This document shows, one piece after another, positions 25,661 through 44,640 of a stretch of DNA of 44,842 bases. Below the pieces are notes generated by a model. The model searched no databases and was not told the origin of the DNA. It saw nothing but the letters and a program-made list of their open reading frames with translations. Every line of letters starts with the position of its first letter. Positions within the stretch are counted from its first letter, which is position 1. The position numbers were made by a program, and so were the translations under genes. The DNA lies in contig JACPBN010000005.1 in assembly GCA_016180275.1 (NCBI GenBank), forward strand, positions 1 to 44,842, in the 5' to 3' direction. The stretch comes from Candidatus Woesearchaeota archaeon (GTDB taxonomy: Archaea; Nanobdellota; Nanobdellia; Woesearchaeales; UBA10200).

Positions 25661-25933
25661 ATGGATAAAGCCGATAAACTAAAACTAACCAAATTAAGAG
25701 CTCAAATAGACAGCATAGACAAAAATATGCTAAAGCTAATCAAGAAACGTTTTCTTTTAACAGCAAATATTGGTAAGATTAAAGCAAGAAACTTTACACC
25801 TATATTTGACAAAAAAAGGGAGCAACAAATCAAGCTTCGCATCAAAAGATTCTGCAACGAAAACAATTTAAATGGAGAGAAGATTACACAAGTATTTGAA
25901 AAGATACTTGAGATAACAAGGGGTAGGAAATAA
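25661..25933 (+). CDS. aroQ: Chorismate mutase (AroQ class, stand-alone)
   Basis: 90 aa. LRAQIDSIDKNMLKLIKKRFLLTANIGKIK...PIFDKKREQQI matches the AroQ helical pattern. Confidence 0.8.
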   Translation: MDKADKLKLTKLRAQIDSIDKNMLKLIKKRFLLTANIGKIKARNFTPIFDKKREQQIKLRIKRFCNENNLNGEKITQVFEKILEITRGRK

Positions 25934-25979
25934 TTAAGATTAGCAAAATTTTATAATTATTCGAATTTATGAGGCCATT

Positions 25980-26816
25980 ATGCAAAAGCTAAATAACCCA
26001 GAGCAGCTTAAAAAAATAGCTAATTCTCTTCGTAAAGTTATTGTTGAGATGGTGCATCGCGCGCAGTCTGGCCATCCTGGAGGCAGTTTAAGCGCAATTG
26101 ATATATTAACAGTGCTTTATTATTACAAGCTTCATCATGACCCTAAAAACCCAAAATGGCAGGATAGGGACAGATTTGTTTTAAGCAAAGGCCATTGCAC
26201 ACCTGCAATTTATGCTATATTGGCAGAGCTTGGATATTTTCCAAAAGAAGAGCTGCTTGGCTACAGAAAAATAAATGCATTGCTGCAGGGCCATACTTCA
26301 ATACATATTCATGGAATTGAGATGAGCGCAGGCAGCTTAGGCCAAGGACTTAGTTATGGAAATGGGATAGCATTTGCTGCAAGATTGGACAAGAAAGATT
26401 ACAAGGTTTATGTCATGATAGGAGATGGCGAAACACAGGAAGGCCAGGTTTGGGAAGCTGCCCAGACAGCAGGAGTGCATAAATTGGATAATATGGTTGT
26501 TTTGCTTGACAGGAACAAGATTCAAAATGATTGGTTTGTGGAGAAGACAAAAAGCATTGAGCCAATTGCTGACAAATGGAAAGCTTTTAACTGGCACGTG
26601 ATTGAGATAGATGGCCATGATGTAAAGCAGATAATGAAAGCGCTTGATGATGCTAATAATCCGGCTATCGTCAATGGAAAGCCATGTGTGATAATTGCGC
26701 AGACAGTCAAAGGCAAAGGAGTTTCATTCATGGAGAATAATCCAGATTTCCATGGCAAAGCGCCTAATGATGCTGAATTCAAGCAGGCGATGGAAGAGTT
26801 GAATAAGTTAGGATAA
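25980..26816 (+). CDS. tktA: Transketolase, N-terminal (TPP-binding) subunit
   Basis: SGHPGGSLS, LSKGHC and the GDGETQEGQVWEA TPP motif. The split-gene form is as in many archaea. Confidence 0.9.
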   Translation: MQKLNNPEQLKKIANSLRKVIVEMVHRAQSGHPGGSLSAIDILTVLYYYKLHHDPKNPKWQDRDRFVLSKGHCTPAIYAILAELGYFPKEELLGYRKINALLQGHTSIHIHGIEMSAGSLGQGLSYGNGIAFAARLDKKDYKVYVMIGDGETQEGQVWEAAQTAGVHKLDNMVVLLDRNKIQNDWFVEKTKSIEPIADKWKAFNWHVIEIDGHDVKQIMKALDDANNPAIVNGKPCVIIAQTVKGKGVSFMENNPDFHGKAPNDAEFKQAMEELNKLG

Positions 26817-26882
26817 TAAGAATAAAATAATTAATTATGATTAAAGTTAGTGTAATAAATATAATAAAACAAGTGAGCAAAA

Positions 26883-27824
26883 ATGCCAGAGATGATCGCA
26901 ACAAGAGATGGTTTTGGAAAAGCTTTGTTAAATTTGGGCAGAGAAAACAAGTTAGTTGTTAATCTTGAAGCTGATCTAGGCAAGAGCACAAAGAGCATTC
27001 TCTTTGCAAAAGAATTTCCTGATCGTACAATCAATTTTGGTATTTCTGAACAGGATATGATAACAACTGCTGCTGGCTTGGCATATTCAGGCAAGATTCC
27101 GTTTGCAAGCACTTTTGCAATCTTTACAGAGAGAGCTTTTGAGCAGATAAGGAATTCAGTTGCTCGAGTCAATCTTAATGTGAAGATCGTCGGAAGCCAT
27201 TCTGGATTATTGACAGGAGATGATGGAGACAGCGCCCAGTGCATAGAAGACCTATCTGTTTACAGAAGTTTGCCGAACATGGTAGTCTTATCTCCAGCTG
27301 ATGCAGTTGAGACAGAGAAAGCAACTTATGCGATGGCAGAGCATGTTGGCCCGATGTATTTAAGGACTGGCAGAGAAAAGATCCCTGTCTTGTTTGACGC
27401 GAATTATAAGTTTGAGTTAGGCAAAGGTGTGCTGTTAAGAGATGGCAAAGATGTGACACTATTTGCCACTGGCCCATTGGTTTCAATTGCTTTAGATGCA
27501 GCCAAATTGTTAGAGCAAGAAAAGATTTATGCAAGAGTGATCAACATCCATACAATAAAGCCGATTGACAAAGATTTGATAATAAAAGCAGCAACAGAAA
27601 CAAAAGCAATAGTTACGGCAGAGGATCATAATACAATCGGTGGCTTGGGAAGCGCAGTTTCTGAAGTTCTTACAGAGTATGCTCTTGCTCCTTTGGAGAG
27701 AGTAGGCGTTAAAGACAGGTTTGGAGAGAGCGGCAAGCCAGCTGAATTGTATAAAAAGTATGGATTAACTGCTGAAGAGATTGTCAAACACGCAAAGAAA
27801 GCGATCGCAAGAAAGAGAGTTTGA
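26883..27824 (+). CDS. tktB: Transketolase, C-terminal (pyrimidine-binding) subunit
   Basis: FGISEQDMITTAAGLA and SHSGLLTGDDGDSAQCIEDL. It immediately follows the N-terminal subunit. Confidence 0.9.
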   Translation: MPEMIATRDGFGKALLNLGRENKLVVNLEADLGKSTKSILFAKEFPDRTINFGISEQDMITTAAGLAYSGKIPFASTFAIFTERAFEQIRNSVARVNLNVKIVGSHSGLLTGDDGDSAQCIEDLSVYRSLPNMVVLSPADAVETEKATYAMAEHVGPMYLRTGREKIPVLFDANYKFELGKGVLLRDGKDVTLFATGPLVSIALDAAKLLEQEKIYARVINIHTIKPIDKDLIIKAATETKAIVTAEDHNTIGGLGSAVSEVLTEYALAPLERVGVKDRFGESGKPAELYKKYGLTAEEIVKHAKKAIARKRV

Positions 27825-27999
27825 TGAGTTCTAGTATTAATATTAACAATAGGGTAAAACAGTTAAATGCTTATTTTAATTGATAACTGCTAGTTATAAC
27901 CAAACTATGTAGTATATACATAATAATTATATAGCACATTGCACTAAATTAACTTACATAAATACTTAGACATCATAAATTATCCATGGAGGTGATTTT

Positions 28000-28032
28000 A
28001 TGGGTAAAGGCAAAGGTAAAGGGTGTTGTTAG
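28000..28032 (+). CDS. Candidate 10-codon micro-ORF MGKGKGKGCC
   Basis: The strongest SD in the window (GGAGGTGA, 27988-27995) precedes the ATG. T6, T7 and T6 runs follow at 28045-28072. Whether it is translated is unknown. Confidence 0.25.
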   Translation: MGKGKGKGCC

Positions 28033-28140
28033 ATTTCAGATAGGTTTTTTATTTTCTTTTTTTGGATTTTTTATGTATGTTTGAAAATTCTAAGGTAAGT
28101 AATAATTAGCTTTAAATATGATAAGAATATTCTAATTGCT

Positions 28141-28788
28141 ATGGTGCTTCCACTCAACTTTAAGCAGTCAAAAAAGGCAATAGTATTCCTAACATGGGTA
28201 TTTTTGCTATTTTTTTTGCTGGGGTGCAATAGAGCTACTAAAGACACTAATTCGGTTAACATAATTAATCCGTCTGAACAAAAAAATCTTTCCAATTCAG
28301 CAGGCTTGGGCGATGCCGATGTAATTGGGGTAATTGATACAGCTAAACAAAAAGGAATTGCTGGTGTGGCAGAGTTGCGCAATTATTCTATACAAAATAT
28401 TTCCAAAGAACTTGAGGGTACGATGGAAGGAAATTTGGTTGTTTTGGTAATGATACTCAATAAAAGCAATCCTACAGTCTACTCAGTCTTTCCTAAAAAG
28501 ATAAAATTTAACAGAAAACCAAAAACTGCTAATGTGTACTTCTTTCAGCTTTTGGATGCATCAGAAAGAGGGCTTTTTGTTGGCGGAATCCCTGGTTTGG
28601 AATATGCCTATAATCCGAATTTGGATGGAGAGCAGGCCATTCCGGACCATGCCGGCGTTGCTAAGATAGTTTCAAGCAGCGTTTCTTTTATCATAGAATT
28701 TCCTTATTACAGGAATGCAACAATTCTGAGAGTGATTAGGGTAGAGAAAAAGCAATTTACCATTGTCGGGGATGTTATGCTAAAATAA
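28141..28788 (+). CDS. Hypothetical lipoprotein / secreted protein
   Basis: Signal-peptide-like N-terminus with lipobox-like FLLGC. The mature part has no recognised family. Confidence 0.55.
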   Translation: MVLPLNFKQSKKAIVFLTWVFLLFFLLGCNRATKDTNSVNIINPSEQKNLSNSAGLGDADVIGVIDTAKQKGIAGVAELRNYSIQNISKELEGTMEGNLVVLVMILNKSNPTVYSVFPKKIKFNRKPKTANVYFFQLLDASERGLFVGGIPGLEYAYNPNLDGEQAIPDHAGVAKIVSSSVSFIIEFPYYRNATILRVIRVEKKQFTIVGDVMLK

Positions 28789-28920
28789 TGGGAATCAGCA
28801 GGCTCCAAGAAGAAGAAAAGAAATAAGAGAAGTTATACTATATATGCCATTAAAAATTCTCAGAATTTTCAAACATATTATGTCGCAAATTTTATATATT
28901 ACCTGTGTTTTCTAGGCATC

Positions 28921-29001
28921 ATGAAAGCAAGCAAGAACTCTGGAACATTGAATTCAGGAAGTTTTGGCTTAGCTTACAGCTTCTATTATTTTAGCTATTA
29001 A
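28921..29001 (+). CDS. Candidate leader micro-ORF MKASKNSGTLNSGSFGLAYSFYYFSY
   Basis: 26 codons, with 6 of the last 8 residues Phe or Tyr. TATA-like TTTATATA (28892-28899) lies about 25 nt upstream of the ATG, suggesting a leaderless transcript. It is 160 nt upstream of the first DAHP synthase. AT-rich sequence makes a chance F/Y run plausible. Confidence 0.25.
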   Translation: MKASKNSGTLNSGSFGLAYSFYYFSY

Positions 29002-29163
29002 GTCCTCCTGCTGGATGAGGATTGCGCATTGGGTTTCTGGCAGATAGATTAATAAGAAGATAATTCTAACTGCTTTGAAGATGATGCAAAATGCTAGGAT
29101 AATAGGATGGAAAAAAGAGCATGATAACAGAATTAGGATAAACAAAACCACAAAGGTGAGACT

Positions 29164-30180
29164 ATGATAGTAGTATTGAAGAAGAATGCAACTGAGAAAC
29201 AGATACAGCACATAAAGCAGCGCGCAATAGATCTTGGGTTTAAGATACATGAGAGCAAAGGCGTTGAAGTGACAATACTTGGGCTGATAGGTGATGAGAG
29301 AAATCTCAACAAAGCCCAGATTGAAGCGATGGAAGGCGTCGAGAAAGTAATGGAAGTCTTAAAGCCATACAAATTAGCCAGCAGAGACTTTCATCCACAT
29401 GACACTATTATTGATGTGAACGGAGTAAAGATTGGAGGTAAAGAATTGATAATAATGGCAGGGCCTTGCGCAGTTGAAAGTGAATCACAGATCTGCGGGA
29501 TTGCAAAAGAAGTAAAAAAATTGGGTGCACAGATTCTGCGCGGCGGAGCTTTTAAGCCAAGAAGCTCTCCTTATGCATTCCAAGGCTTGGAAGGAGAAGG
29601 ACTGAAGCATCTGGCAAAAGCACGAGAGCAGACAGGGCTTCCAATAATCACAGAAGTGCTTGACACGCATGAAGTTCCGCTAGTAGCTGAGTATGCTGAC
29701 ATCTTGCAGGTTGGCACAAGAAACATGCAGAACTTCAAGTTATTGAAAGCATTAGGAAAACAGAAAAAACCTGTGCTTCTGAAGAGAGGCATGAGCGCAA
29801 CCTTAGATGAATTTCTGATGGCAGCTGAATATATTATGTCAGAAGGCAATCATAATGTAATTTTGTGCGAACGCGGAATCAGGACATTCAATACGTACAC
29901 AAGAAACACATTGGATCTGGCAATTGTTCCTGTATTAAAGAAATTAACACATCTGCCTATTATCGTTGACCCAAGCCATGGAACAGGAAAATACGATCTT
30001 ATTATCCCTATGTCAAGGGCAGCAGTTGCAGCTGGCTGTGATGGATTGATAATAGAGTGCCACACTGAGCCAGAGAAATCTGTTAGTGATGCTGACCAGA
30101 CAATCTCCCCAAAAAGGCTTGCGCAATTGATAAAGGAGATAAAGCCAATTGCAGCTGCTGTTGGGAAAATAGTGAAATAA
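29164..30180 (+). CDS. aroF: DAHP synthase, type I-beta with N-terminal ferredoxin-like regulatory domain (paralog 1)
   Basis: 338 aa. Core motifs are [36 protein letters not shown] and VDPSH. The roughly 70-aa N-terminal domain MIVVLKK...LIGDE resembles that of Thermotoga-type DAHPS. SD is AGGTGA. Confidence 0.85.
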
Positions 30181-30236
30181 AATTGTTTTGAATTTAATTA
30201 TAATATTAAAATTTGTATAAATTAAATGGTGATACT

Positions 30237-31262
30237 ATGATAATTGTAATGAAGCAAGGAGCAAAGAAAGAGAACATAGAGGCAGTCATAGATCTGGTTG
30301 CAAAGAATAATTTGAAGCCTGTGCCGTTGTATGGAACAGAGAGAACTGTAATTGCAGTCATTGGTGATGAACGTGTCTTGAACAAAGATACTGTTGAAGC
30401 CATGGACGATGTTGAGAAAGTGATGGAAGTTTTAAAGCCGTATAAATTAGCTGCAAGAGAATATCATCCTGAAAACACAATAATAAAAGTCGGTGAAGGA
30501 GCTAATTGTGTGAATATTGGCGGCAAAGAGATTGTTGTAATGGCAGGACCTTGCGCAGTTGAGAATAAAGAGCAGATAATTTCCATTGCAAAAGAAGTCA
30601 AGAAAGCAGGAGCAAAGATATTGAGGGGCGGTGCATTCAAACCAAGGACTGCACCGTATGATTTCCAGGGATTAGGAGAACAAGGATTAAAGTATTTGGC
30701 TGCTGCAAGAGAAGAGACTGGATTAAAGATAGTTACAGAGGTTGTTGATCCCAGAGATGTTGCACTTGTTGAGAAGTATGCAGACATTTTACAAGTTGGA
30801 ACAAGGAATATGCAAAATTATACTTTATTGAAAGAATTAGGCAAAGCAAAAAAACCTGTGCTGCTAAAAAGAGGTATGTGGGCAACATATAAAGAGTGGC
30901 TGCTTGCTGCAGAATATATAATAAGTTCAGGAAATCCAAATGTGATCTTATGTGAGCGAGGAATAAGGACATTTGAAACGCATACGCGCAATACTTTAGA
31001 TTTAGCTGCAGTGCCTGCATTGAAAGAATTAACGCATTTGCCGATAGTAGTTGACCCTAGCCATGGCACAGGCAGAAGAAGCCTAGTTAGTGCTATGTGC
31101 AAAGCTGCAATTGCTACTGGGTGTGATGGATTGATAATTGAAAGCCATACTCATCCTGAAAAGAGTGTGAGTGATGCTGAGCAGACTATATCAACAGAAG
31201 TCCTTAAGCAGCTCATGAAGGATTTCAAGAAAGTTGCAGAAGCAGTAGGAAGGAAGATTTAA
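30237..31262 (+). CDS. aroF: DAHP synthase, type I-beta with N-terminal regulatory domain (paralog 2)
   Basis: Same core motifs: [30 protein letters not shown]. The N-terminal domain is divergent. Start set at the ATG at 30237, which has GGTGA upstream. Confidence 0.85.
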   Translation: MIIVMKQGAKKENIEAVIDLVAKNNLKPVPLYGTERTVIAVIGDERVLNKDTVEAMDDVEKVMEVLKPYKLAAREYHPENTIIKVGEGANCVNIGGKEIVVMAGPCAVENKEQIISIAKEVKKAGAKILRGGAFKPRTAPYDFQGLGEQGLKYLAAAREETGLKIVTEVVDPRDVALVEKYADILQVGTRNMQNYTLLKELGKAKKPVLLKRGMWATYKEWLLAAEYIISSGNPNVILCERGIRTFETHTRNTLDLAAVPALKELTHLPIVVDPSHGTGRRSLVSAMCKAAIATGCDGLIIESHTHPEKSVSDAEQTISTEVLKQLMKDFKKVAEAVGRKI

Positions 31263-31282
31263 TATAGTAATAATTTAATACT

Positions 31283-31393: not shown

Positions 31394-32509
31394 ATGGTAG
31401 AATACATTAGAGTAAATTTGAAGTACAGACTAGATAGTTCTTATGGCATAGCTATAGGAGAGAATCTGGATAAAATTATCATTAATGACTTTAAGAAATT
31501 TAACCACAGTAAATATGTTATTATTACAGATGATGTTACAGGAAAATTATTTGGCAACAAGCTACTTGCATTATTGAGAAAAAACAAAGTAAATGCAGAA
31601 ATTGTTGACTTTAAGGCAGGAGAAAAGAGCAAAAACATTGAAACCATAACGAAACTTTGCAGAGAACTGTTAAGGATGAATGCAGACAGAAAATCATGCA
31701 TAATTGCATTAGGCGGTGGGGTAGTTGGAGATGTTGCAGGTTTTGTAGCGAGCATTTATATGCGTGGCATTAATTTTGTTCAGATTCCCACAACTTTGCT
31801 GGCAATGGTTGACAGCAGCATAGGCGGCAAAGTCGGAGTTGATTTAGATTCTGGCAAAAATATCCTAGGCATGTTTTCACAGCCAAAAAAAGTCTATATC
31901 GATATTGATTACTTAGAAACACTGCCAATAAGCGAGCTTGAAAATGGATTAGCAGAAATAATAAAGCATGGAATAATTGCAGATAAAGCTCTTTTCATAT
32001 ATATAGAAAAGAATCTCTGCAAGATATTTATGAGAAATGTGGCAGCATTAAAAAGAATAATCATTAATTCTGTAAAAATAAAAAAAGCAATTGTTGAAAA
32101 AGATGAAAAAGAATCTTTGCTGAGAATGAAGCTAAACTTTGGGCATACAACTGGGCATGCGATTGAGGCATTGAGCAATTATAGGATAAAGCATGGCATG
32201 GCGGTTGCTTTAGGCATGCTAATTGAAAGCAGAATAGCAAATAAGCTTGGGTTGTTAAAAAGCTTTGATATGTTAAGAATAAATTTGCTTGTCAGAAGAG
32301 CTGGCTTGAATATTCATGATAATGTTTTTAGGGTTGTGAAGAAAGCAAATCTAAATAAACTAGTTTTGCTTATGCACCATGATAAAAAGACTTTTAATGG
32401 GGATATAAGGTTTATATTGCCATTAACCCTAGGTAAAGTAGTTATTAGAGGAAGCATGAAAGATAACTTAATAAAGGAGTCTGTTTTAGATGCATTGCCT
32501 AATGCATAA
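31394..32509 (+). CDS. aroB: 3-dehydroquinate synthase (AroB type)
   Basis: GGGVVGDVAGFVAS, the GGKVGVD region and NFGHTTGHAIE. Confidence 0.9.
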   Translation: MVEYIRVNLKYRLDSSYGIAIGENLDKIIINDFKKFNHSKYVIITDDVTGKLFGNKLLALLRKNKVNAEIVDFKAGEKSKNIETITKLCRELLRMNADRKSCIIALGGGVVGDVAGFVASIYMRGINFVQIPTTLLAMVDSSIGGKVGVDLDSGKNILGMFSQPKKVYIDIDYLETLPISELENGLAEIIKHGIIADKALFIYIEKNLCKIFMRNVAALKRIIINSVKIKKAIVEKDEKESLLRMKLNFGHTTGHAIEALSNYRIKHGMAVALGMLIESRIANKLGLLKSFDMLRINLLVRRAGLNIHDNVFRVVKKANLNKLVLLMHHDKKTFNGDIRFILPLTLGKVVIRGSMKDNLIKESVLDALPNA

Positions 32510-32600: not shown

Positions 32601-34163
32601 ATGATAGTAATCCCAATAACCGCAAACAACGTAATAGAAAGCTTTGAAGAAATTAGAAAAGCTGCTAAAGTCGCAGATATAATTGAGCTGCGCTGTGATT
32701 ATTTGTTTACTGCAAACAGGATAATTCTGAGAAAACTGTTGAGATTTGTCAGAAGCTGTAAAAAGCCTGTTATTGTAACTCCAAGGGATAGGAAGCAAGG
32801 CGGCACAGGCATAATTGACAACATTACAAAAATTGAGCTGATTCTTGAATCTATTAAACAAAAAGCTGATTACTTTGACATTGAAGCAGATAAATTAAAG
32901 CTCCTTAAAAAAGTTGATATTGATGACATCAGAAAAGAACTTGAAGATGATTATGGTGTAGATATAAGAAAATTTGAGAAAGATATGATGAAGACAAAAT
33001 TCATTGTAAGCTACCATAACTTCAAAAAAACACCGGATGTAATTTCTGTCTATAAAAAGATAAGAAAAGATGCAAAAAAATACAAGCTAAAGAATTATGT
33101 TATCAAGGTAGTAACATTGGCAAATGTAATTGAAGACAATGCAAAAATATTCAAGCTATTAGAGCTTGCAAAAAAAGACAAGCAGCCGATAATTGCATTC
33201 TGTATGGGAAATTATGGAGAGATAAGCAGGGTTCTTTGCGCAAAATATGGGAGCTTGTTCACATTTGGGTGCTTGGAAGAAACAAAGAAGGCTGCTCCAG
33301 GACAGATAAATGCTGACTTGCTGAAGAATATTTATAGGGTTAATAAGCAGGATGCTGCTACAAAAGTGTTTGGGCTGATAGGTAATCCAGTTAATGAAAG
33401 CAAAGGATATCTGGTGCATAATTTATGTTTTGAGAATAAAAAGATAAATGCTGTTTATGTTAATTTTTTGGTTGATGATATAAAAAAATTTCTTGCTGTA
33501 TATAAAGATAGGTTTCATGGATTCAGCATTACAATGCCATACAAGCAAAGTATTGTCAAGTATTTAAATAAAGAAGATTCAAATGCCAAGAAGATTGGGG
33601 CAGTAAACACCCTAGCAATTAATGCCGGAAAATTATCTGGCCATAATACAGATTATAACGGTGCGTTGGAGGCATTAACAAAAGTCACAAAATTAGCAGA
33701 CAAAAAAGTTCTGATGCTAGGCGCAGGCGGTGTTGCAAAAGCAATATTAGCTGCTTTGATAAATGAAGGAGCTATTGTAACAGTTGCAGATACAGATGGG
33801 CATAAAGCAAAATTAGTTGCTAATAGCTTTAATTCTGCATATTGCAGCATGAGAGAGATTGCAGATGTTGAATTTGATATCTTGATTAATGCTACACCTA
33901 TCGGCATGGCTCCAAATATTGATGCTATGCCTGTCGGCAATGAAATATTAAATAAATTGGACAAGAAAAAAGTTGTGTTTGATGTTGTTTATTCTCCGGA
34001 AAAAACCAAGCTATTGGAAGAGGCAGAGAAAAGGCATGCCATAACGGTTTCCGGCGTTGATATGTTTATTTTGCAGGCAAGAGAGCAGTTTAAGCTCTGG
34101 ACAGGAAAGATGCCAGATCTAAGGCTGATGAAAAGGATATTGGTCAAGGGCGCTTTGAAGTAA
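32601..34163 (+). CDS. aroDE: Bifunctional type I 3-dehydroquinate dehydratase / shikimate 5-dehydrogenase (AroD-AroE fusion)
   Basis: The N-terminal roughly 255 aa carry IELRCDYL, IVSYHNF and IAFCMG (type I DHQase). The C-terminal roughly 265 aa carry VFGLIGNPVNESKG, ITMPYKQ, GAVNT, HNTDYNG and GAGGVAKA (AroE). Confidence 0.85.
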   Translation: MIVIPITANNVIESFEEIRKAAKVADIIELRCDYLFTANRIILRKLLRFVRSCKKPVIVTPRDRKQGGTGIIDNITKIELILESIKQKADYFDIEADKLKLLKKVDIDDIRKELEDDYGVDIRKFEKDMMKTKFIVSYHNFKKTPDVISVYKKIRKDAKKYKLKNYVIKVVTLANVIEDNAKIFKLLELAKKDKQPIIAFCMGNYGEISRVLCAKYGSLFTFGCLEETKKAAPGQINADLLKNIYRVNKQDAATKVFGLIGNPVNESKGYLVHNLCFENKKINAVYVNFLVDDIKKFLAVYKDRFHGFSITMPYKQSIVKYLNKEDSNAKKIGAVNTLAINAGKLSGHNTDYNGALEALTKVTKLADKKVLMLGAGGVAKAILAALINEGAIVTVADTDGHKAKLVANSFNSAYCSMREIADVEFDILINATPIGMAPNIDAMPVGNEILNKLDKKKVVFDVVYSPEKTKLLEEAEKRHAITVSGVDMFILQAREQFKLWTGKMPDLRLMKRILVKGALK

Positions 34164-34284
34164 GGGATGGGATTAAATCGAGAGCTGTAGGAAGTAGTTC
34201 TTATGTTTTAAGAGGATAATTAACACAAGGTTAATCTATAAATTTATTTGATAGATTCTTGCATAAAAACCGCTAGATTTATAT

Positions 34285-34328
34285 ATTATTACTTAAATAT
34301 AATAATATTATTACTAAAATATAATAAT
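34285..34328. repeat. Tandem 22-bp direct repeat (ATTATTACTTAAATATAATAAT / ATTATTACTAAAATATAATAAT) in the promoter of the MNT gene
   Basis: Two adjacent copies with one mismatch, ending 4 nt before the ATG at 34333. Each contains a TATA-like core. Confidence 0.6.
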
Positions 34329-37676: not shown

Positions 37677-37764
37677 GAGCTTCATTTCTGTAGCAAAAAA
37701 CCAATAAATTTATATATTATTAGGTATTAATAGATATGAACTAATAATATATGGAGGAATAAAA

Positions 37765-38094
37765 ATGACACAAGCTGAAACTGTTAGTCTATCAGATATG
37801 ATGAGCCTAGAATTAAAGGCATTAATAAAATGCGGTATTTACACCAGCAAGAGTGATGTTGTAAGAGATGCCATGAGATGCTTATATACACATCAGCCTA
37901 CCTTAAAACTAAACATTGCCATAGAATTATATAAAGAAGGAGAGGTAAGTATAGGAAAAGCAGCGGAGATTGCAGGCATGAGCACTGTTGATTTTAAAGA
38001 AATACTTGCAGAAAGAGGCCTAGTTAAAGATATCACCTTATCAAAAGAAAGAGTTAAAAAAGGATTAGAGCTTCTTAAGAGGATTAGAAGGTAA
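37765..38094 (+). CDS. UPF0175-family putative antitoxin
   Basis: 109 aa. EVSIGKAAEIAGMSTVDFKEILAERG is the UPF0175 signature region. SD is GGAGGA. Confidence 0.7.
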   Translation: MTQAETVSLSDMMSLELKALIKCGIYTSKSDVVRDAMRCLYTHQPTLKLNIAIELYKEGEVSIGKAAEIAGMSTVDFKEILAERGLVKDITLSKERVKKGLELLKRIRR

Positions 38095-38100
38095 AAGATA

Positions 38101-38583
38101 ATGGGCTTAATATTTGATACAGATATCCTTAGTACATTTGCAAAGATAAATAGATTATATTTATTCTCAGAGCTATTTAGAGGGAATGAATTATTAATAC
38201 CTAATTCAGTAGTACAGGACTTAAAAGGAAGCAAGATAAACTTAGCTGATGTTGTGCTGAACTCAAACATATTCAAAGTTTGTGAGATAAGTAAGGATGA
38301 ATCAATATTAGTTGAAGAGATAAACTCTCAAAAGAATTTAGGAAGAGGGGAAGTTGAGTGCATAGCTATCTGTAAAAGCAGAAACTGTTTATTTGTAAGC
38401 AATGATTATCGAGCAAAAAAATGTGCAGAAGCTTTTAATATAGAGGTTTTTGATCTTGAGTCAATACTTTCTATGCTTAAGGAGATACTGACAGATGAAG
38501 AGCTGAATGATATAATAAAGTTAATTGAATCCAAAGATAAAGTCAAGATTAGAAATAAGGAATTATTATTTCAGAAATATTAA
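38101..38583 (+). CDS. PIN-like nuclease domain protein (DUF3368-like), putative toxin
   Basis: 160 aa with N-terminal LIFDTDILSTF (PIN Asp), LGRGEVECIAI and VSNDYRAKK. It is the canonical partner of UPF0175 genes. Confidence 0.7.
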   Translation: MGLIFDTDILSTFAKINRLYLFSELFRGNELLIPNSVVQDLKGSKINLADVVLNSNIFKVCEISKDESILVEEINSQKNLGRGEVECIAICKSRNCLFVSNDYRAKKCAEAFNIEVFDLESILSMLKEILTDEELNDIIKLIESKDKVKIRNKELLFQKY

Positions 38584-38595
38584 ATTACTAATAAA

Positions 38596-39102
38596 ATGAA
38601 CATTGCACTGATAGGATACAGAGGAACTGGAAAGACAACAGTGAGCAAATTGCTGGCAGATGAGCTAGGCTTCAAATTGCTAAGTACAGATGCTTTGATA
38701 GTTGAGCATGCTGATGCAAGCATTCCAGAGATTGTCAAGAAGCACGGATGGGAGAAGTTTAGAGAGATTGAGAAAGAAGTGATTTCAGAAATAGCTGAAT
38801 TTGATGATTGTGTATTTGACTGCGGCGGCGGAATAGTAGAGAATTGGGATAATATTGTTGCATTAAAGAAGAATCGCTCAACAAAGATTGTTTTATTGGA
38901 AGCAAATATTAATACAATTGCTGAGAGGATACAGGAAAGTGATCGCCCATCATTGACAAGCAAAAGCATAATCGAAGAAATACAAGAAGTATTAAATAAG
39001 CGCAGAAAATTGTATGAAAAAGCAGGAGATATAAAGATAGATACAAGCAAGATCAGCCCAATAGAGATTGTTAAGAATATTAGAAAGAAGTTAAAGATTT
39101 GA
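38596..39102 (+). CDS. aroK: Shikimate kinase, P-loop AroK/AroL type
   Basis: 168 aa with IALIGYRGTGKTTVSKLLADELG (Walker A), STD and CGGGIV. This is not the GHMP-type archaeal shikimate kinase. Confidence 0.85.
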   Translation: MNIALIGYRGTGKTTVSKLLADELGFKLLSTDALIVEHADASIPEIVKKHGWEKFREIEKEVISEIAEFDDCVFDCGGGIVENWDNIVALKKNRSTKIVLLEANINTIAERIQESDRPSLTSKSIIEEIQEVLNKRRKLYEKAGDIKIDTSKISPIEIVKNIRKKLKI

Positions 39103-39153
39103 AGAATAATTAATAGTGTAATAAATCAATTAAAAATAAAGTGATGCAAGAAA

Positions 39154-40218
39154 ATGAGCTCAACATTCGGTAGATATTTTCGCGTAACAACATTTGGAGA
39201 AAGCCATGGCAAGGCAGTCGGGTGTGTAATTGACGGAGTCAAGCCAGGCATAAAGATAGATGAAACTTTTATTCAGAGGGAATTAGATAAAAGAAAGCCT
39301 GGGCAGAGCAAAGTAACCACACAAAGAAAAGAGCCAGACAAATTTGAGATACTTTCTGGAGTGTTTGAAGGCAAGACAACTGGGCATCCAATCTGTATAG
39401 TTATCTGGAACAAGGACGCAAATCCTAAGCATTATGATAACATTAAAGATCTTTTCAGGCCAGGGCATGCTGATTTTACATTCTTCAAGAAGTATGGGAT
39501 AAGGGATTACAGAGGAGGAGGAAGGCAGAGTGCAAGAGAGACAGCTGCAAGAGTAGCTGCAGGAGCGATTGCAAAACAGCAGCTGGAGAAATCTGGCATC
39601 AAGATAAAGGCTTATGTCAAACAGGTTGGCTTAATAAAAGTCAAAACAATTGATCTGGATGAAGTTGAGAACAATATTGTAAGAGCTCCTAATTCCAAAG
39701 ATGCAAAAAAGATTGAAGAGCTTATCATGAAAGTCAGAGGAGAAGGAGATTCTGTTGGCGGTATAGTAGAAGTTGTTGCATATGATGTTCCTGCAGGATT
39801 AGGAGATCCGGTTGCAGACAAATTGAATGCAAAATTAGCTGAAGCATTGATGTCTATTCCTGCTGTAAAAGGAGTTGAGATTGGAGAAGGCTTTAATGTT
39901 GTTAACTTGAAAGGCAGCCAGGATAATGATATATTCATAAAAAAAGGAAAAAAGATAATCTGCAAATCCAATCATGCAGGAGGAATTCTCGGTGGTATTT
40001 CGACAGGAATGCCTATTGTAGCAAGAGCTGCATTCAAGCCAGCATCTTCAATCTATAAAGAGCAGGAAACTGTTGATGTAGCTGGCAAGAAAGTTAGCTT
40101 TAAGATTCAAGGACGACATGATCCTGCAATATTTGTCCGCGGAGTAGCAGTAGTTGAGACTATGGTTGCATTAGTGCTGTATGATGCATTACTGGCGAAT
40201 GAGGCGATGAAGAAGTGA
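39154..40218 (+). CDS. aroC: Chorismate synthase
   Basis: TFGESHG, FRPGHADFT, GGGRQSARETAARVAAGA and GRHDPA. Confidence 0.9.
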   Translation: MSSTFGRYFRVTTFGESHGKAVGCVIDGVKPGIKIDETFIQRELDKRKPGQSKVTTQRKEPDKFEILSGVFEGKTTGHPICIVIWNKDANPKHYDNIKDLFRPGHADFTFFKKYGIRDYRGGGRQSARETAARVAAGAIAKQQLEKSGIKIKAYVKQVGLIKVKTIDLDEVENNIVRAPNSKDAKKIEELIMKVRGEGDSVGGIVEVVAYDVPAGLGDPVADKLNAKLAEALMSIPAVKGVEIGEGFNVVNLKGSQDNDIFIKKGKKIICKSNHAGGILGGISTGMPIVARAAFKPASSIYKEQETVDVAGKKVSFKIQGRHDPAIFVRGVAVVETMVALVLYDALLANEAMKK

Positions 40219-40502: not shown

Positions 40503-40663
40503 ATTATTTGATTTTCTAGTTAATTTATATCCTACATCTTCCACTAGACATTCTCCTATGGCACTGGACAAACTCAGAAAGAATTTATATATTTGGCTTA
40601 CTTACTGATTTAATTGGGGAGTTAAGCTGTTAAAAGCAGTTCATAAATCAAAGAGGTAGAAAA

Positions 40664-41674
40664 ATGATCCCCCTAACACAAAAAACAGATTATAATTCAT
40701 TAATTTCTCAGATAGGAAATATACTTGAGACAGGAAGAAAACAAGCATATATAGCAATCGATTCTATTCTTGTAAAAACATATTGGGAAATAGGAAAGCA
40801 GATAGTAGATTATGAGCAGCATGGTCAACAAAGGGCAATATATGGTAAAGAGCTTCTAGTACAGATATCAAAAGATCTTAAGCTTAAATATGGTAAAGGC
40901 TTTAGCAGAAGTAATCTCCAATATATGAGGCTAGTTTATCTAAAATATCCAATTTGCCAGACACTGTCTGGCAAATTGAGCTGGAGCCATTATGTTGAGC
41001 TTCTGGGAATAGAAGAGGATACTGCAAGAGCATTCTATGAAAAGCAGTGCATTTACGAAAAATGGAGCGTAAGGGAGCTAAAAAGGCAGATAAATTCAAT
41101 GCTTTTCCACAGGATAGCACTTAGCAAAGATAAGAAAGGAGTTATGGAATTAGCGAGAAATGGGCATATAGTAAGCATGCCAGAAGATGTAATAAGAGAT
41201 CCTTATGTCCTTGAATTCCTTAATATTTCTCAAGATAGCAAATATACAGAAAAAGAACTAGAGCAGAAGATAATAGATAACCTGCAAAAATTCTTGCTAG
41301 AGCTTGGAAAAGGCTTTGCTTTTATTGGAAGGCAGTATAGAATAAGCTTTGGCGGACAGCATTATTATATTGATTTAGTATTTTATAACAGAATTCTAAA
41401 ATGCTTCGTACTTTTCGACCTAAAGATAGGGGCTGCTGACCACTTAGATATAGGGCAGATGAACCTTTATCTTAACTATTTTAAGGATGAGGAGATGCAC
41501 AAGGAAGATAATGAGCCCATCGGAATAATATTGGCTGCTGACAAGAATAATCTTCTTGTAAAATATGCACTTGGCTCAATTTCAAACAAGATGTTTGTAT
41601 CTAAATACAAGCTTTATCTTCCAGATAAGAAAATGCTTGAAGATCAGTTAAGAAAAGCACTTGGAGGCGATTAA
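40664..41674 (+). CDS. YhcG-like PD-(D/E)xK nuclease (DUF1016 family)
   Basis: 336 aa with LSWSHYVELL, RELKRQI and the C-terminal nuclease core YYIDLVFYNRILKCFVLFDLKIG. Confidence 0.75.
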   Translation: MIPLTQKTDYNSLISQIGNILETGRKQAYIAIDSILVKTYWEIGKQIVDYEQHGQQRAIYGKELLVQISKDLKLKYGKGFSRSNLQYMRLVYLKYPICQTLSGKLSWSHYVELLGIEEDTARAFYEKQCIYEKWSVRELKRQINSMLFHRIALSKDKKGVMELARNGHIVSMPEDVIRDPYVLEFLNISQDSKYTEKELEQKIIDNLQKFLLELGKGFAFIGRQYRISFGGQHYYIDLVFYNRILKCFVLFDLKIGAADHLDIGQMNLYLNYFKDEEMHKEDNEPIGIILAADKNNLLVKYALGSISNKMFVSKYKLYLPDKKMLEDQLRKALGGD

Positions 41675-41675
41675 A

Positions 41676-41813: not shown

Positions 41814-41868
41814 AATATTATAAGTTTTTGATAAAGATTTTTAAACCTTATCAGGTTAGTTACAAAGC

Positions 41869-42342
41869 ATGAACACCCAAAAAGCGACCTTCGCAGCAGG
41901 CTGTTTCTGGCATGTTGAAGAAACATTCAGGAAGATAAAAGGAGTTGTAAAGACACAGGTTGGATATATAGGTGGAAATTTTAAGAATCCTAGCTATGAA
42001 GATGTCTGCTCAGATTCAACAGGACATGCAGAAGCGATTGAGATAGAATTTAATCCAAACTTAGTTTCTTATGATGAGCTGTTAGATGTGTTCTGGAAGT
42101 CGCATAATCCTACAACATTAAACAGGCAAGGATTGGACATTGGCAGCCAGTACAGGAGCGCAATCTTTTATCACAGTGAAGAGCAGAAAAAGAAAGCCAT
42201 TGCTTCAATGCAGGAATCGCAGAAGAAGTTCAGCAATAAGATTGTGACAGAGATAAAGCCTGCAGCAAAATTCTACCATGCAGAGGAGTATCACCAAAGA
42301 TATCTTGAAAAGAAAGGGCTGAAGACTTGCAGGGCATTTTAA
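41869..42342 (+). CDS. msrA: Peptide methionine (S)-sulfoxide reductase MsrA
   Basis: GCFWHVEE active site, GHAEAIEIEF and EEYHQRYL. Confidence 0.9.
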   Translation: MNTQKATFAAGCFWHVEETFRKIKGVVKTQVGYIGGNFKNPSYEDVCSDSTGHAEAIEIEFNPNLVSYDELLDVFWKSHNPTTLNRQGLDIGSQYRSAIFYHSEEQKKKAIASMQESQKKFSNKIVTEIKPAAKFYHAEEYHQRYLEKKGLKTCRAF

Positions 42343-42359
42343 TTATTAAGATATAAAAA

Positions 42360-42758
42360 TCATTTCTCTTTCTTCTTAAACCCAAGCGCAGCAGAATTTA
42401 TGCAGTATCTTTGGCCAGTTGGATTTGGGCCGTCATTGAACACATGCCCCAAATGCCCTTGGCATTTTGCGCAGAGAACTTCTGTCCTTTTCATGAACAA
42501 GCTGTTATCAGATTCTTCTTTCACGCTTTCCTTTTTCATTGGCTTAAAGAAACTAGGCCAGCCTGTTCCTGAATCAAACTTTGCATCTGAGCTGAACAAA
42601 GGCTCTCCGCATCCTGCGCAAATGTAAGTTCCTTTTTCATGATGATTGTAATATTTGCCTGTAAACGCTGCTTCCGTGCCTTTCTCTCTCAATATTTTGT
42701 ATTGCTCTGGTGAGAGGCAGGTTTTCCATTGTTGGTTTGATTTAGGGATAGGTTTCAT
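42360..42758 (-). CDS. msrB: Peptide methionine (R)-sulfoxide reductase MsrB
   Basis: CAGCGEPLF and [12 protein letters not shown] zinc CxxC pairs, GWPSF and RYCINS. Confidence 0.9.
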
Positions 42759-42826
42759 ACAACAATAGAAGAAGATATATTTATATAAATGTATATATTT
42801 ATCATAAGAGAAATTGGAGGACTAAC

Positions 42827-43201
42827 ATGGCAACATGCGCAATTTGTAAATCTAATATAGCATTTATGGATAAAAAACATAAGATGCTAGACCATAAAGA
42901 GAATGATATTTTGTATTGCGAGAATTGCTACTCTGAATGGGAAAAGAAGCAAACACAGAAAGCAGAAAAAGAGCGAATAGCTAAACTAGATAAGATATTA
43001 AGTAAAAATAATAGATGGGAGTATCTAGTAAAAAAGGTTAATACTGCATTTGGTGGTTCTATCAAAACAGAAGATAGTGAACTAGACATATTAGGACAAG
43101 AAGGATGGGAACTTGTAGGGATAACTGCAGTTAATCAATCTAATTTTATTGCTGGACAAGTTGTTACTCTTATCATGGTTTTTAAAAGAAAATTAACTTA
43201 A
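42827..43201 (+). CDS. Hypothetical protein, N-terminal zinc-ribbon-like plus C-terminal DUF4177-like domain
   Basis: CAIC...CENC at the N-terminus. The C-terminal WEYLV...LGQEGWELVG pattern is DUF4177-like. SD is GGAGGA. Confidence 0.5.
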   Translation: MATCAICKSNIAFMDKKHKMLDHKENDILYCENCYSEWEKKQTQKAEKERIAKLDKILSKNNRWEYLVKKVNTAFGGSIKTEDSELDILGQEGWELVGITAVNQSNFIAGQVVTLIMVFKRKLT

Positions 43202-43336
43202 AAGAGTTTCATTACTTTCTATAGTTAAGTGATGTTAAGTTAATGCCATGCAAAATAATCACCTTTAAATACAACCTATGCCTTATAATACTTACAATGG
43301 AAAAGAGTGGTTTACCATGGCTATTGTAATTCTGGC

Positions 43337-43426
43337 ATGGTTTTTGTAGTTGATAAACTAAATTCTGACTTAATTAGGCTCTTTTCTGCAAATAAAAGTA
43401 TTTCTGCTTTTAGTTGGCGCTGGTGA
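43337..43426 (+). CDS. Candidate leader ORF MVFVVDKLNSDLIRLFSANKSISAFSWRW
   Basis: 29 codons ending TGG CGC TGG TGA, a GC-rich patch in AT-rich intergenic DNA. T6 runs follow at 43464-43469, 43486-43491 and 43505-43510. It is 200 nt upstream of DAHP synthase paralog 3. No clear SD. Confidence 0.3.
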   Translation: MVFVVDKLNSDLIRLFSANKSISAFSWRW

Positions 43427-43626
43427 AGGTTCTTTCATTGTTTTATATACGACAGATTGCAGGTTTTTTGCAATAAATTAGGTTATTTTTTATTTGAATA
43501 TGGGTTTTTTGATGATAAAGAGTGTATAGGATAATAATAGAGAATAAATAAAAATAAAATAATACGATAAGATAGAGAAAATAAGATAAAAATAATAAAA
43601 TAAAACAACAACGCGAGGTACAAAAA

Positions 43627-44640
43627 ATGATAATCATACTGAAGAAAGAGACAGAGAAGAAAGATATAGACATAATACTGAACAAAATCAAAGAGAACAA
43701 CTTAGAGCCATTGTATCTTCCTGGAATTGAGAAGATAGTCATCGGTGCAATAGGAGATGAAAGGGTTCTTGCAACATTAAACCTAGATGCTTTGCCGTTT
43801 GTTGAAAGGATTTTGCCAGTATTAACTCCATACAAATTAGTCAGTAGGGATTTTAAGCACGAAGATACGATAATAAATGTAAAAGGTGTTAATATTGGAA
43901 AGGAATTTGTTGTTATGGCTGGACCTTGCGCAGTTGAGAACGAGCAGCAATTGACAATAACTGCAAAAAGCGTAAAGAAATCTGGTGCAAATGTTTTAAG
44001 AGGCGGAGCTTACAAACCAAGAAGTTCTCCTTATAGCTTTCAGGGATTAGGAGTGCAAGGATTAAAATTGTTAAAAAAAGTAGGCGATGAGCTTAATCTG
44101 CAAGTCATCACTGAAGTAATTTCTCCAGAAACTGCAGAGACAGTGGCAGAATATGCTGACATTCTGCAGGTTGGCACAAGGAATATGCAGAACTTTGATC
44201 TCTTAAAGAGATTGGGCAAGATAAAAAAGCCTGTATTATTGAAGCGTGGCATGAGCGCAACTGTTGAAGAACTGCTGATGGCAGCTGAATATATCATGTC
44301 AGAAGGCAATCATAATGTAATCTTGTGCGAACGCGGAATAAGGACATTTGAGACTGCAACAAGAAACACATTAGATTTGGGCATTGTTCCATTGTTAAAG
44401 CAAAAGACACATCTTCCTGTTATAGTTGATCCAAGCCATGCAACTGGAATAAGGGCATTAGTTGCTCCGATGGCAAAAGCAGCTTTAGTAGCTGGTGCAG
44501 ATGGCCTGATAATTGAAGTGCATTATAATCCAGAAGCAGCAAAAAGCGATGGCATGCAAAGCTTATATCCTGATCAATTTGATGCTCTGATGCAGAATCT
44601 AAAGATATTAGCTAAAGTGTCTGGCAAGGAGATGAGATAA
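43627..44640 (+). CDS. aroF: DAHP synthase, type I-beta with N-terminal regulatory domain (paralog 3)
   Basis: 337 aa with [26 protein letters not shown] and DPSH. The N-terminal domain MIIILKKETEKKDIDIILNKIKENNLEPLYLPG...IGDE is divergent. SD is GAGGT. Confidence 0.85.
   Translation: MIIILKKETEKKDIDIILNKIKENNLEPLYLPGIEKIVIGAIGDERVLATLNLDALPFVERILPVLTPYKLVSRDFKHEDTIINVKGVNIGKEFVVMAGPCAVENEQQLTITAKSVKKSGANVLRGGAYKPRSSPYSFQGLGVQGLKLLKKVGDELNLQVITEVISPETAETVAEYADILQVGTRNMQNFDLLKRLGKIKKPVLLKRGMSATVEELLMAAEYIMSEGNHNVILCERGIRTFETATRNTLDLGIVPLLKQKTHLPVIVDPSHATGIRALVAPMAKAALVAGADGLIIEVHYNPEAAKSDGMQSLYPDQFDALMQNLKILAKVSGKEMR

Follow-up and report, generated by a model that had tools for sequence, protein, structure and literature searches.

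A close described counterpart of the gene cluster reported here is the aro operon of Thermococcus kodakarensis (TK0271-TK0262), which runs in the order regulator, transketolase, 3-deoxy-D-arabinoheptulosonate 7-phosphate synthase (DAHPS), AroB and onwards and is controlled by the activator Tar (PMC6737238). The same order is found in a 44,842-nt stretch of DNA from a Candidatus Woesearchaeota archaeon (assembly GCA_016180275.1, contig JACPBN010000005.1), hereafter the window, whose right part carries a cluster of genes for the synthesis of aromatic compounds. In both systems a regulator gene comes first, a step converting fructose 6-phosphate and glyceraldehyde 3-phosphate into erythrose 4-phosphate and xylulose 5-phosphate follows, and the shikimate genes come next; T. 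kodakarensis also co-regulates separate trp and tyr-phe units with its aro operon, a further likeness to the system described below. The Thermococcus shikimate kinase is of the GHMP type, whereas the window has a P-loop kinase, three DAHPS bearing a ferredoxin-like (FL) domain, a fused AroD-AroE, a HAD-AroA fusion and an adjacent regulator of the TrmB family. The Tar palindrome, TGGACA-N8-TGTCCA, gave chance-level matches only. We read this region as the left two-thirds of a chromosomal, vertically inherited aromatic super-operon of Woesearchaeota (DPANN), with putative allosteric and leader-peptide control, and give this reading a probability of roughly two in three.

By most accounts DPANN archaea cannot make amino acids. 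In most metagenome-assembled genomes (MAGs) of Woesearchaeota and other DPANN archaea the shikimate pathway is missing or aromatic synthesis is incomplete (PMC10936187, PMC8421398), Woesearchaeales have been credited only with 'partial amino acid biosynthesis in subsets' (2026 preprint, 10.64898/2026.05.13.725050), and 45 of the 46 archaeal genomes surveyed in 2010 had no recognisable bacterial-type DAHPS or shikimate kinase (PMC3018139). Bifunctional AroD-AroE proteins have been reported from plants, Planctomycetes, Acidobacteria, Methanofastidiosa and Methanomassiliicoccales (PMC11237513). The AroD-AroE of the window shares the fusion and domain order of these proteins, its closest named representatives including Planctomycetes/Brocadiaceae at 45% identity, but it is found in DPANN genomes, which that survey does not list. 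The DAHPS of Thermotoga maritima (1RZM/3PG9) has the same two-domain type I-beta plus FL architecture over its full length (381 bits); the window differs from it by three paralogs with FL domains 33-45% identical to one another, one of them tied to a trp operon. Public MAG records already carry annotations for the enzymes of this cluster, so that the pathway by itself is not new in kind.

The putative control elements have their nearest parallels in bacteria. The attenuators of Escherichia coli (pheL/pheA, pheM/pheST and trpL/trp) rely on a short upstream ORF with a run of cognate codons and U-rich tracts nearby, and short ORFs with these traits precede the aromatic operons of Woesearchaeota: Phe and Tyr codons stand before aro-tyrA-pheA-pheST and a W-R(-W) ending before trp, while in one locus (L149) a leader that stayed with pheST after loss of the biosynthetic genes recalls pheM. 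Unlike the bacterial systems, these ORFs belong to an archaeal host, start at or within ~14 nt of the predicted transcription start site and are probably leaderless, carry their putative regulatory codons at the extreme C-terminus and yielded no terminator/antiterminator hairpin pair; their U-tracts either overlap the Phe codons or come straight after the stop codon, an arrangement compatible with archaeal termination that needs no hairpin. Leaderless polycysteine short ORFs of mycobacteria attenuate downstream operon genes (bioRxiv 10.1101/834739). As is predicted here, such an ORF is the first cistron of a polycistronic mRNA and has consecutive codons for an amino acid of the operon's metabolism, but those are bacterial and use Cys codons, whereas the present ones are archaeal and use Phe/Tyr and Trp codons. 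Described archaeal regulators of aromatic pathways are proteins, TrpY and Tar (PMC6737238), and full-text searches of the literature yielded nothing relevant on leader-peptide or ribosome-mediated attenuation in archaea.

The cluster encodes a complete route from sugar phosphates to chorismate. Pfam and NCBIfam scans recovered every gene named in the initial annotation, at its position and on the plus strand (Table 1). AroD, AroE, shikimate kinase, AroA and AroC are all present as full-length profile matches, with orthologs 80-96% identical. The split transketolase, whose halves together carry the Transketolase_N, Transket_pyr and Transketolase_C domains, is the usual archaeal form (PMC11237513) and would supply erythrose 4-phosphate. 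Three FL-domain DAHPS would then feed the seven-step shikimate route through AroB, AroD-AroE, the P-loop AroK, a class I AroA and AroC, and chorismate mutase would open the Phe/Tyr branch. An entry route by way of DAHPS and AroB and a kinase of the P-loop rather than the GHMP type had both been proposed at the outset, and both hold: DAHPS and AroB match their Pfam and NCBIfam models above cutoffs, and the kinase is a Pfam SKI protein. Profile scans of the window found no GHMP-type kinase, ADH synthase or DHQ synthase II, and no GHMP kinase was found in the related clusters examined. Judged by its orthologs, the second DAHPS probably starts at an ATG ~30 nt inside its ORF, opening MIIVMK. A gene for a DUF4177 protein is also interspersed among the aro genes.

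Gene order is widely shared. Three loci with proteins 77-96% identical to those of the window (L001, L081 and L163) have the order DAHPS-DAHPS-AroB-AroDE-HAD-AroA-AroK-AroC...DAHPS3, while more distant Woesearchaeota and Nanoarchaeota (L002, L103, L121, L153, L168, L169 and L170; 33-67% identity) retain TrmB / TK / (TAL) / DAHPS-AroB-AroD(E)-AroA-AroK-AroC, TK being transketolase, followed by tyrA, pheA(ACT), pheS and pheT. In L169 and L167, aroD and aroE are separate genes. The initial annotation had taken a gene order common to relatives as something that would speak against its picture of an unexpected bacterial-style pathway, and such an order is what we observed. The continuation to the right is seen in L165, a close relative on a 109-kb contig, where DAHPS3 is followed by fused trpEG, trpD, fused trpCF, trpB and trpA and then (18095-21014) by genes for a 423-aa protein with no Pfam match, RpiB, Rpe and TyrA; orthologs of DAHPS3 at 95% identity precede trpEG-D-CF-B-A. 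Transketolase, RpiB and Rpe would together supply the erythrose 4-phosphate and the ribose 5-phosphate/phosphoribosyl pyrophosphate needed for Trp synthesis. Loss is seen in L149 (12141-20807), which is 76-78% identical to L168 but has lost DAHPS, AroB, AroDE, AroA, AroC, TyrA and PheA while retaining transketolase, TAL, the leader ORF, a GNAT gene, a diverged AroK (58% identity) and pheST, and is a snapshot of pathway loss within Woesearchaeota. The cluster is an old, native and syntenic super-operon, under loss in some sister lineages.

The left anchor of this arrangement is the gene for the TrmB-family regulator. More than 500 metagenome stretches, contigs of 0.4-0.9 Mb among them, encode this protein at 75-95% identity, and many of the loci have transketolase and/or the DAHPS-aro genes directly after it. 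The neighbouring transketolases there are just 53-61% identical and the Aro proteins 33-67%, against the 75-95% of TrmB. Rather than being specific to the cluster, the TrmB protein may be an essential regulator of general scope in Woesearchaeales.

Alignment of the spacer between transketolase and DAHPS1 with those of L163 and L083 revealed an almost invariant block of ~210 nt that opens with the TATA-like box TTTATATA. Exactly 30 nt from the start of this box lies the ATG of a leaderless 26-codon ORF encoding MKASKNSGTLNSGSFGLAYSFYYFSY, with the C-terminus LAYSFYYFSY; the L163/L083 version has four amino acid differences in its N-terminal half and an identical LAYSFYYFSY. Comparable ORFs precede the operons of seven other lineages, with C-termini ...MAQIGFAFYRLFSSFRYFFFYFKF (L121), ...MANIGFAFYRLFSGFKYFFFYFKY (L168), ...MAQIGFAFYRLFSSFKYFFFYFKF (L169), ...MALIGYSFYRLFSNYSILFSYFRF (L149), ...LFLGRYAFFYYFI (L103) and ...GSFLFFTNIFYFGFFK (L153), and with the whole peptide MIKDHGFRYFGFYFYY in L170. 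In all eight lineages the ATG lies 29-44 nt after the start of a TTTAWAWA box, and Phe or Tyr makes up 5-8 of the last 12 codons. The leaders form at least five non-homologous peptide families that have in common only their position, their shortness and a Phe/Tyr-rich C-terminus.

Such ORFs are rare by chance. Among the upstream intergenic regions of all DPANN loci compared (296), nine have seven or more aromatic residues in the last 12, and seven of these nine precede aro operons. Dinucleotide shuffling reached the observed Phe/Tyr score in none of 2000 trials for four lineages and in 1, 3 and 7 of 2000 for others; for the window the figure was 0/2000. Codon changes inside the L121 family are for the most part synonymous or swap Phe and Tyr, with five synonymous changes and one non-synonymous change between L169 and L121. 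A leader is found before transketolase only if DAHPS follows in the same operon (L170, L103), and none where transketolase stands alone or DAHPS has a leader of its own. In L149, where the genes from DAHPS through PheA are lost, the homologous leader is kept before GNAT-AroK-pheS-pheT with fewer Phe/Tyr codons and more non-synonymous changes. U-runs overlap or follow most leaders, and several contain T7 runs. The one Dehalococcoidia DAHPS locus inspected showed no leader; from this single case there is no support for the leader having been inherited together with a bacterial DAHPS. When 427 small ORFs were scanned for leaders rich in other amino acids, nothing exceeded chance, in loci that hold few other biosynthetic operons. 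The annotation pipelines of the contigs called none of the Phe/Tyr or Trp leader ORFs. In L168 (14494-17859) and L169 (14505-18166), pheS and pheT (Phe-tRNA synthetase) lie downstream of the Phe/Tyr leader and are co-linear with aro-tyrA-pheA, with a small conserved ORF of 62-158 aa between them.

The codon type changes with the operon. The leader region of DAHPS3, aligned with those of L163 and L081, contains two small ORFs, of which ORF-b encodes MVFVVDKLNSDLIRLFSANKSISAFSWRW and ends SAFSWRW; its counterparts end ...FGWRWR in L081 and ...SDSWR in L163. In L171, an independent lineage whose DAHPS heads trpE-G-D-CF, a leaderless ORF encodes MKHKNTAKVGSWR and is followed at once by a T6 run, with another T6 28 nt on. 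Thus in two lineages a trp-operon DAHPS is preceded by an ORF ending SWR, SWRW or GWRWR and then by T6-T8 runs.

The comparisons above show that these ORFs exist, are conserved, have codons cognate to their operons and vary in the manner of coding sequence, and as sequence features they are statistically solid. That they act as amino acid-sensing leader peptides is a step further, which we favour at slightly better than even odds. In the mechanism we propose, the promoter would lead straight into a short ORF that ends in Phe/Tyr codons (ahead of DAHPS1-DAHPS2-aro) or Trp codons (ahead of DAHPS3). The pace of the ribosome through these codons would signal how much charged tRNA is available and would govern read-through into the operon. 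How termination might be coupled to the ribosome is a matter for a more tentative model. Termination by archaeal RNA polymerase occurs at oligo-T and needs no hairpin, and U-tracts are recognised by aCPSF1/FttA. The termination signal could thus lie in the U-rich Phe/Tyr codons themselves, or in the U-tract abutting the stop codon after Trp, acting either as intrinsic oligo-U or through recognition by aCPSF1/FttA. When charged tRNA is short, a stalled ribosome would cover the tract, preventing termination or cleavage and allowing read-through, and one that finishes promptly would expose it, a logic resembling that of tnaC and Rho; we hold this particular model to be rather doubtful.

Several observations weigh against the proposed super-operon and its control. 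No bacterial-style terminator/antiterminator pair was found in the leaders, and the Phe/Tyr leader of the window has no T-run of five or more, so that the variant at work there may be structure-based or translational. Phe-rich ORFs can also be mimicked by T-rich terminators of archaea, and one such false positive was met at 27825-28140. A 15-bp helix pairing the Phe/Tyr codons of the window leader with 29093-29107 (z = -2.5) is not relied on, because its 3' arm is not kept in L163 or L083, and the hairpin at the stop codon of the L121 family (GAUUAGC...GCUAAUC) has conserved arms and a variable loop, with no covariation. The Trp leader RNA folds no better than shuffled sequences (z = 0.28). 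The three genomes nearest to the window are so alike that they do not make independent cases for this leader, and L171 is its one distant case. The 200 nt beyond DAHPS3 (44641-44842) hold no trpE start and no Rfam match, and the trp continuation is thus shown for relatives only. Bacterial affinity was tested by tree for AroA and DAHPS only, in trees that contain no Thermococcales, methanogens, Sulfolobales or other classical archaea.

The strongest alternative is that the small Phe/Tyr/Trp ORFs are by-products of T-rich promoter-proximal or terminator sequence, or mark a conserved non-coding RNA or protein-binding site, and are not regulatory leaders; regulation would then rest only on feedback inhibition of DAHPS and a protein factor, such as the adjacent TrmB. 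AT-rich DNA readily encodes Phe and Tyr, a T-run false positive was met, T7 runs lie inside several leaders, and the block shared by the window and L163 is conserved past the ORF, as expected of an RNA or DNA element. The alternative hairpins lack covariation support, and the known archaeal aro/trp regulators, TrpY and Tar, are proteins. Yet in every case the ATG lies at or just past the predicted transcription start site, and at least five non-homologous families agree only in position and in a C-terminal Phe/Tyr run. Substitutions fall at third positions, are synonymous or exchange Phe and Tyr; the codon type becomes Trp exactly where the operon is trp, and the Phe/Tyr run decays where the biosynthetic genes were lost. 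Shuffled sequences and the genomic background seldom reach the observed scores. On this evidence we regard the by-product explanation as unlikely and prefer ribosome-sensed leaders.

A second layer of control is suggested by the three DAHPS. All three contain PF18152 and PF00793, and in their alignment the catalytic motifs KPRS/T, RNMQN, LKRG, CERGIRT and DPSH are intact. The FL domains of different paralogs share 33-45% identity and their barrels 62-71%, whereas orthologs from different genomes are 94-99% identical in both. Such divergence of the FL domains between paralogs, with conservation within ortholog groups, would be expected if each had an effector of its own. We infer three differently inhibited isozymes, with DAHPS3 dedicated to the trp unit; control would then be allosteric through the FL domains as well as by leader peptides. 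The elaborate regulation suspected in the initial annotation is supported by the three isozymes and the leader ORFs.

The enzymes were initially described as typical of bacteria, and this applies to AroA and is suggested by named relatives for the P-loop AroK, AroDE and DAHPS3. It fails for chorismate mutase, whose top NCBIfam model is the archaeal TIGR01791 CM_archaeal (67.9 bits, cutoff 66.95), and for the split transketolase. The barrel of DAHPS1 and DAHPS2 is equivocal, scoring 300 bits to 1VS1 and 1ZCO, which we take to be the Aeropyrum and Pyrococcus enzymes, against 319 bits to the truncated T. maritima enzyme. AroA is of the E. coli type (class I), scoring 366 bits to 1G6S and 81 to the class II enzyme CP4, is 47-56% identical to AroA of Nitrospinae, Planctomycetes, Chloroflexi and Gammaproteobacteria and nests among bacterial sequences; in the neighbour-joining tree DPANN is inseparable from Nitrospinae, with bootstrap support of 1% for DPANN alone and 56% for DPANN plus Nitrospinae. 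Two other Woesearchaeota loci, L103 and L153, have a different AroA (34-36% identical). P-loop AroK proteins of Woesearchaeota, Nanoarchaeota, Diapherotrites and unclassified 'archaeon' MAGs are interleaved with those of Planctomycetota, Deltaproteobacteria and Spirochaetota, and the closest named representatives of AroD-AroE at 50% identity clustering are from Micrarchaeota, Planctomycetes/Brocadiaceae and Woesearchaeota, in line with the published survey of this fusion (PMC11237513). The nearest named non-DPANN relatives of AroDE, AroK and DAHPS3 come from Planctomycetes/Brocadiaceae, Nitrospinae, Chloroflexi and Dehalococcoidia. In the DAHPS tree, DAHPS1 and DAHPS2 are sisters, tandem duplicates within a Woesearchaeota clade, and DAHPS3 groups with the trp-linked DAHPS of L171 on the Chloroflexi/Dehalococcoidia/Planctomycetes side (split support 99%). 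From these comparisons AroA, AroK, AroD-AroE and DAHPS3 appear to belong to clades shared with bacteria, and any transfer between domains would be ancient, with fully ameliorated genes.

These bacterial nearest neighbours might suggest a recently acquired island of mobile or accessory DNA, as the initial annotation had it, the more so as the interruptions it pointed to are real: two toxin-antitoxin pairs and a DUF1016 nuclease lie within the cluster. So does an insertion of ~800 bp bounded by 19-nt terminal inverted repeats (TATGTTTGAAAATTCTAAG / CTCAGAATTTTCAAACATA). Spacer alignment shows that this insertion is not in L163 or L083. It encodes a 215-aa lipoprotein-like ORF (28141-28788) with a lipobox-like LLGC and no transposase, for which there was no Pfam or NCBIfam match and no tblastn match in any locus, and may be a non-autonomous mobile cassette. 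At the same junctions L163 carries Bro-N and an IS66 transposase; it also has a PIN/RHH pair, and L081 has a PIN/RHH pair and an extra LUD-domain gene; the L081 ortholog of the PIN-like toxin is DUF3368. A 95-aa ORF of the window and 423-aa and 350-aa ORFs of relatives matched no family.

The composition of the DNA does not fit such an origin. A comparison of codon and tetranucleotide usage between the two halves, proposed from the start, showed no deviation: the tetranucleotide deviation profile of 1-25600 correlates with that of 25661-44640 at r = 0.97, the coefficients for quarters of the window are 0.90-0.94 irrespective of the half they come from, relative synonymous codon usage of aro and housekeeping genes correlates at r = 0.945 (0.957 for housekeeping genes split in two as a control), and GC content at third positions is 0.33 and 0.32, respectively. 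The window shows no integrase, tRNA or boundary repeats, and the same order on the same TrmB anchor recurs in Woesearchaeota whose proteins are merely 40-65% identical. The aro genes keep their place from one close relative to the next whereas the mobile-type genes vary, and the latter are best seen as secondary insertions at operon junctions. Toxin-antitoxin-type genes also occur in the housekeeping half, namely a ParE/YoeB-like toxin with an 88-aa partner (18780-19384, minus strand) and a nucleotidyltransferase at the left edge of the window (2-292, minus strand), and such modules are thus scattered through the genome rather than specific to the aro cluster. We consider a recently acquired island very improbable.

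Equally improbable is that the pathway mainly supplies chorismate for non-protein products (folate/p-aminobenzoate, quinones) rather than for aromatic amino acids. Past chorismate the window has chorismate mutase alone and no pheA, tyrA or trp genes, but relatives tie the cluster to trpEG-D-CF-B-A plus tyrA and to tyrA, pheA(ACT) and pheST, the leader codons are those for Phe, Tyr and Trp, and no folate or quinone genes were seen in any locus. Supply of the aromatic amino acids therefore remains our preferred function for the super-operon.

The host is a DPANN archaeon, as had been conditionally supposed. The best full-length relatives found in protein searches carry the names Candidatus Woesearchaeota or Nanoarchaeota, with named Woesearchaeota matches at 82-88% for AroK and 83% for HAD-AroA. 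With one genome per species, HAD-AroA has a single full-length relative, Candidatus Woesearchaeota RIFCSPHIGHO2_02_FULL_37_9 (82% identity), the next two matches are 'Nanoarchaeota' (DPANN) and all others are bacterial at 41-49%. The surroundings of the cluster are as unmistakably archaeal as initially stated, with signal recognition particle (SRP) RNA, 5S rRNA, RadB, NAC, PCNA and an archaeal-type phosphoenolpyruvate carboxylase (PEPC), and the left half also encodes NFACT and a Holliday-junction-resolvase-like nuclease. That the contig is a chimera of an archaeal and a bacterial half, a misjoin having been raised initially, is extremely improbable: strand bias and GC skew shift near 19-25 kb and the enzyme types to the right of that point look bacterial, but the two halves share their tetranucleotide profile, the 'bacterial' half holds the archaeal-type chorismate mutase and split transketolase, and the junction ABC-ATPase(-)/TrmB/CM/TK-N/TK-C/DAHPS recurs at 85-96% protein identity in L083 (JGI) and L163 (ENA groundwater), independent assemblies from other samples.

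Table 1. Positions of the genes, leader elements, insertions and flanking features of the window.
Feature	Coordinates	Strand	Evidence or remark
Sec61-beta-like 60-aa ORF	389-571		Read from sequence only, no family score
NAC	581-919
Archaeal SRP RNA	1493-1767		Rfam
RadB	2307-3068	-
PCNA	8805-9548
5S rRNA	14378-14494	-	Rfam
Archaeal-type PEPC	16744-18240	-
TrmB-family transcription regulator, conserved left anchor of cluster	24737-25561	+	Pfam TrmB 4e-19
Chorismate mutase (AroQ class), archaeal type	25661-25933	+	Pfam CM_2 6e-20
Split transketolase, N half	25980-26816	+	Pfam
Split transketolase, C half	26883-27824	+	Pfam
Lineage-specific ~800-bp insertion	28076-28877		19-nt inverted repeats, 95% complementary; apparent TTATG duplication
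TATA-like box of Phe/Tyr leader	28891-28898	+	Opens conserved block at 28891
Phe/Tyr leader ORF before DAHPS1	28921-29001	+	Leaderless, 26 codons and stop
DAHPS1, type I-beta with N-terminal FL domain	29164-30180	+	DAHP_synth_1 1e-78, DAHP_snth_FXD 6e-24; 381 bits to 1RZM
DAHPS2, tandem paralog of DAHPS1, type I-beta with FL domain	30213-31262	+	Pfam
AroB, 3-dehydroquinate synthase	31394-32509	+	Pfam DHQ_synthase and DHQS_C; TIGR01357 363 bits
AroD-AroE, type I dehydroquinase fused to shikimate dehydrogenase	32601-34163	+	DHquinase_I, Shikimate_dh_N, Shikimate_DH, SDH_C
Nucleotidyltransferase/HEPN toxin-antitoxin pair	34333-35419	+	Pfam; in L081, not in L001 or L163
HAD-AroA, HAD sugar-phosphatase domain (residues 1 to ~225) fused to class I EPSP (5-enolpyruvylshikimate 3-phosphate) synthase	35421-37469	+	HAD_2 3e-42, EPSP_synthase 7e-124
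UPF0175 antitoxin and PIN-like toxin pair	37765-38583	+	Pfam; in L081, not in L001 or L163
AroK, P-loop shikimate kinase (AroK/AroL family)	38596-39102	+	Pfam SKI 4e-38
AroC, chorismate synthase	39154-40218	+	Pfam Chorismate_synt 4e-141
DUF1016/YhcG PD-(D/E)XK nuclease	40664-41674	+	Pfam; window only, no counterpart in L001, L081 or L163
MsrA	41869-42342	+	Pfam; conserved neighbour (also L001, L163), no pathway gene
MsrB	42360-42758	-	Pfam; conserved neighbour (also L001, L163), no pathway gene
Trp leader region	43264-43510	+	Sequence; alignment with L163 and L081
TATA-like box of Trp leader	43264-43271	+
Trp leader ORF-a	43297-43329	+	MEKSGLPWLL and stop
Trp leader ORF-b	43337-43426	+	Peptide given in text, and stop
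Small hairpin of Trp leader	43456-43474	+
T6 runs of Trp leader	at 43464, 43486, 43505	+
DAHPS3, trp-operon-linked paralog, type I-beta with FL domain	43627-44640	+	Pfam

Some features lie outside this argument. The HAD domain of HAD-AroA (35421-36100) has intact catalytic HAD motifs of the sugar-phosphatase type, with TM_1254, CbbY, the BT2127 pyrophosphatase and beta-PGM as its top PDB matches; the fusion is confined to five clusters at 90% identity, one of them 54% identical to the window protein. In L153 a His_Phos_1 gene stands between DAHPS and AroB. Both toxin-antitoxin modules of the cluster are preceded by a common 27-nt sequence, AAAAACC..T..ATTTATATATTATTA (34265-34291 and 37696-37722; 89% identical), with a TATA-like box inside, and the nucleotidyltransferase/HEPN pair also by two tandem 22-nt palindromic repeats (34283-34326), likely an operator. 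The divergent spacer between the ABC-transporter ATPase gene (minus strand) and the TrmB gene (24582-24649) holds a 38-nt imperfect palindrome with a repeated TACTTTAAAG motif that may be an operator or a promoter pair. In L166 (6295-9182, minus strand), a 788-kb contig of an unclassified 'archaeon', the aro genes are dispersed, unlike in the Woesearchaeota cluster: a P-loop AroK adjoins a histone gene, and a DAHPS without FL domain lies ~3 kb away beside a form III-like RuBisCO large subunit. The final 200 nt of the window are GC-richer than their surroundings and have nothing in common with the DAHPS3-trpE spacer of relatives or with any locus compared; the contig ends at 44842, and an insertion or repeat may have broken the assembly there. 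Rfam at gathering threshold found nothing beyond SRP RNA and 5S rRNA in the whole window, and at an E-value threshold nothing credible, and no leader family match, in either leader region or in the window tail.

Together with its relatives, this locus documents that one Woesearchaeota lineage encodes, in co-linear genes, the whole way from sugar phosphates to chorismate, extending to Trp, Tyr and Phe in relatives. The loss of the pathway in sister lineages such as L149 offers a concrete marker for reductive evolution, and for DPANN archaea that are possibly less host-dependent. If the leader ORFs function as proposed, they would constitute the first amino acid-specific attenuation system in Archaea, with ribosome-sensed leaders on the aromatic and trp operons of Woesearchaeota, and would extend a textbook bacterial mechanism to a domain in which transcription termination differs. 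The U-tract model, if true, would describe a hairpin-independent attenuator adapted to archaeal transcription, and the leader ORFs would offer a testable case of transcription-translation coupling used for regulation in archaea.

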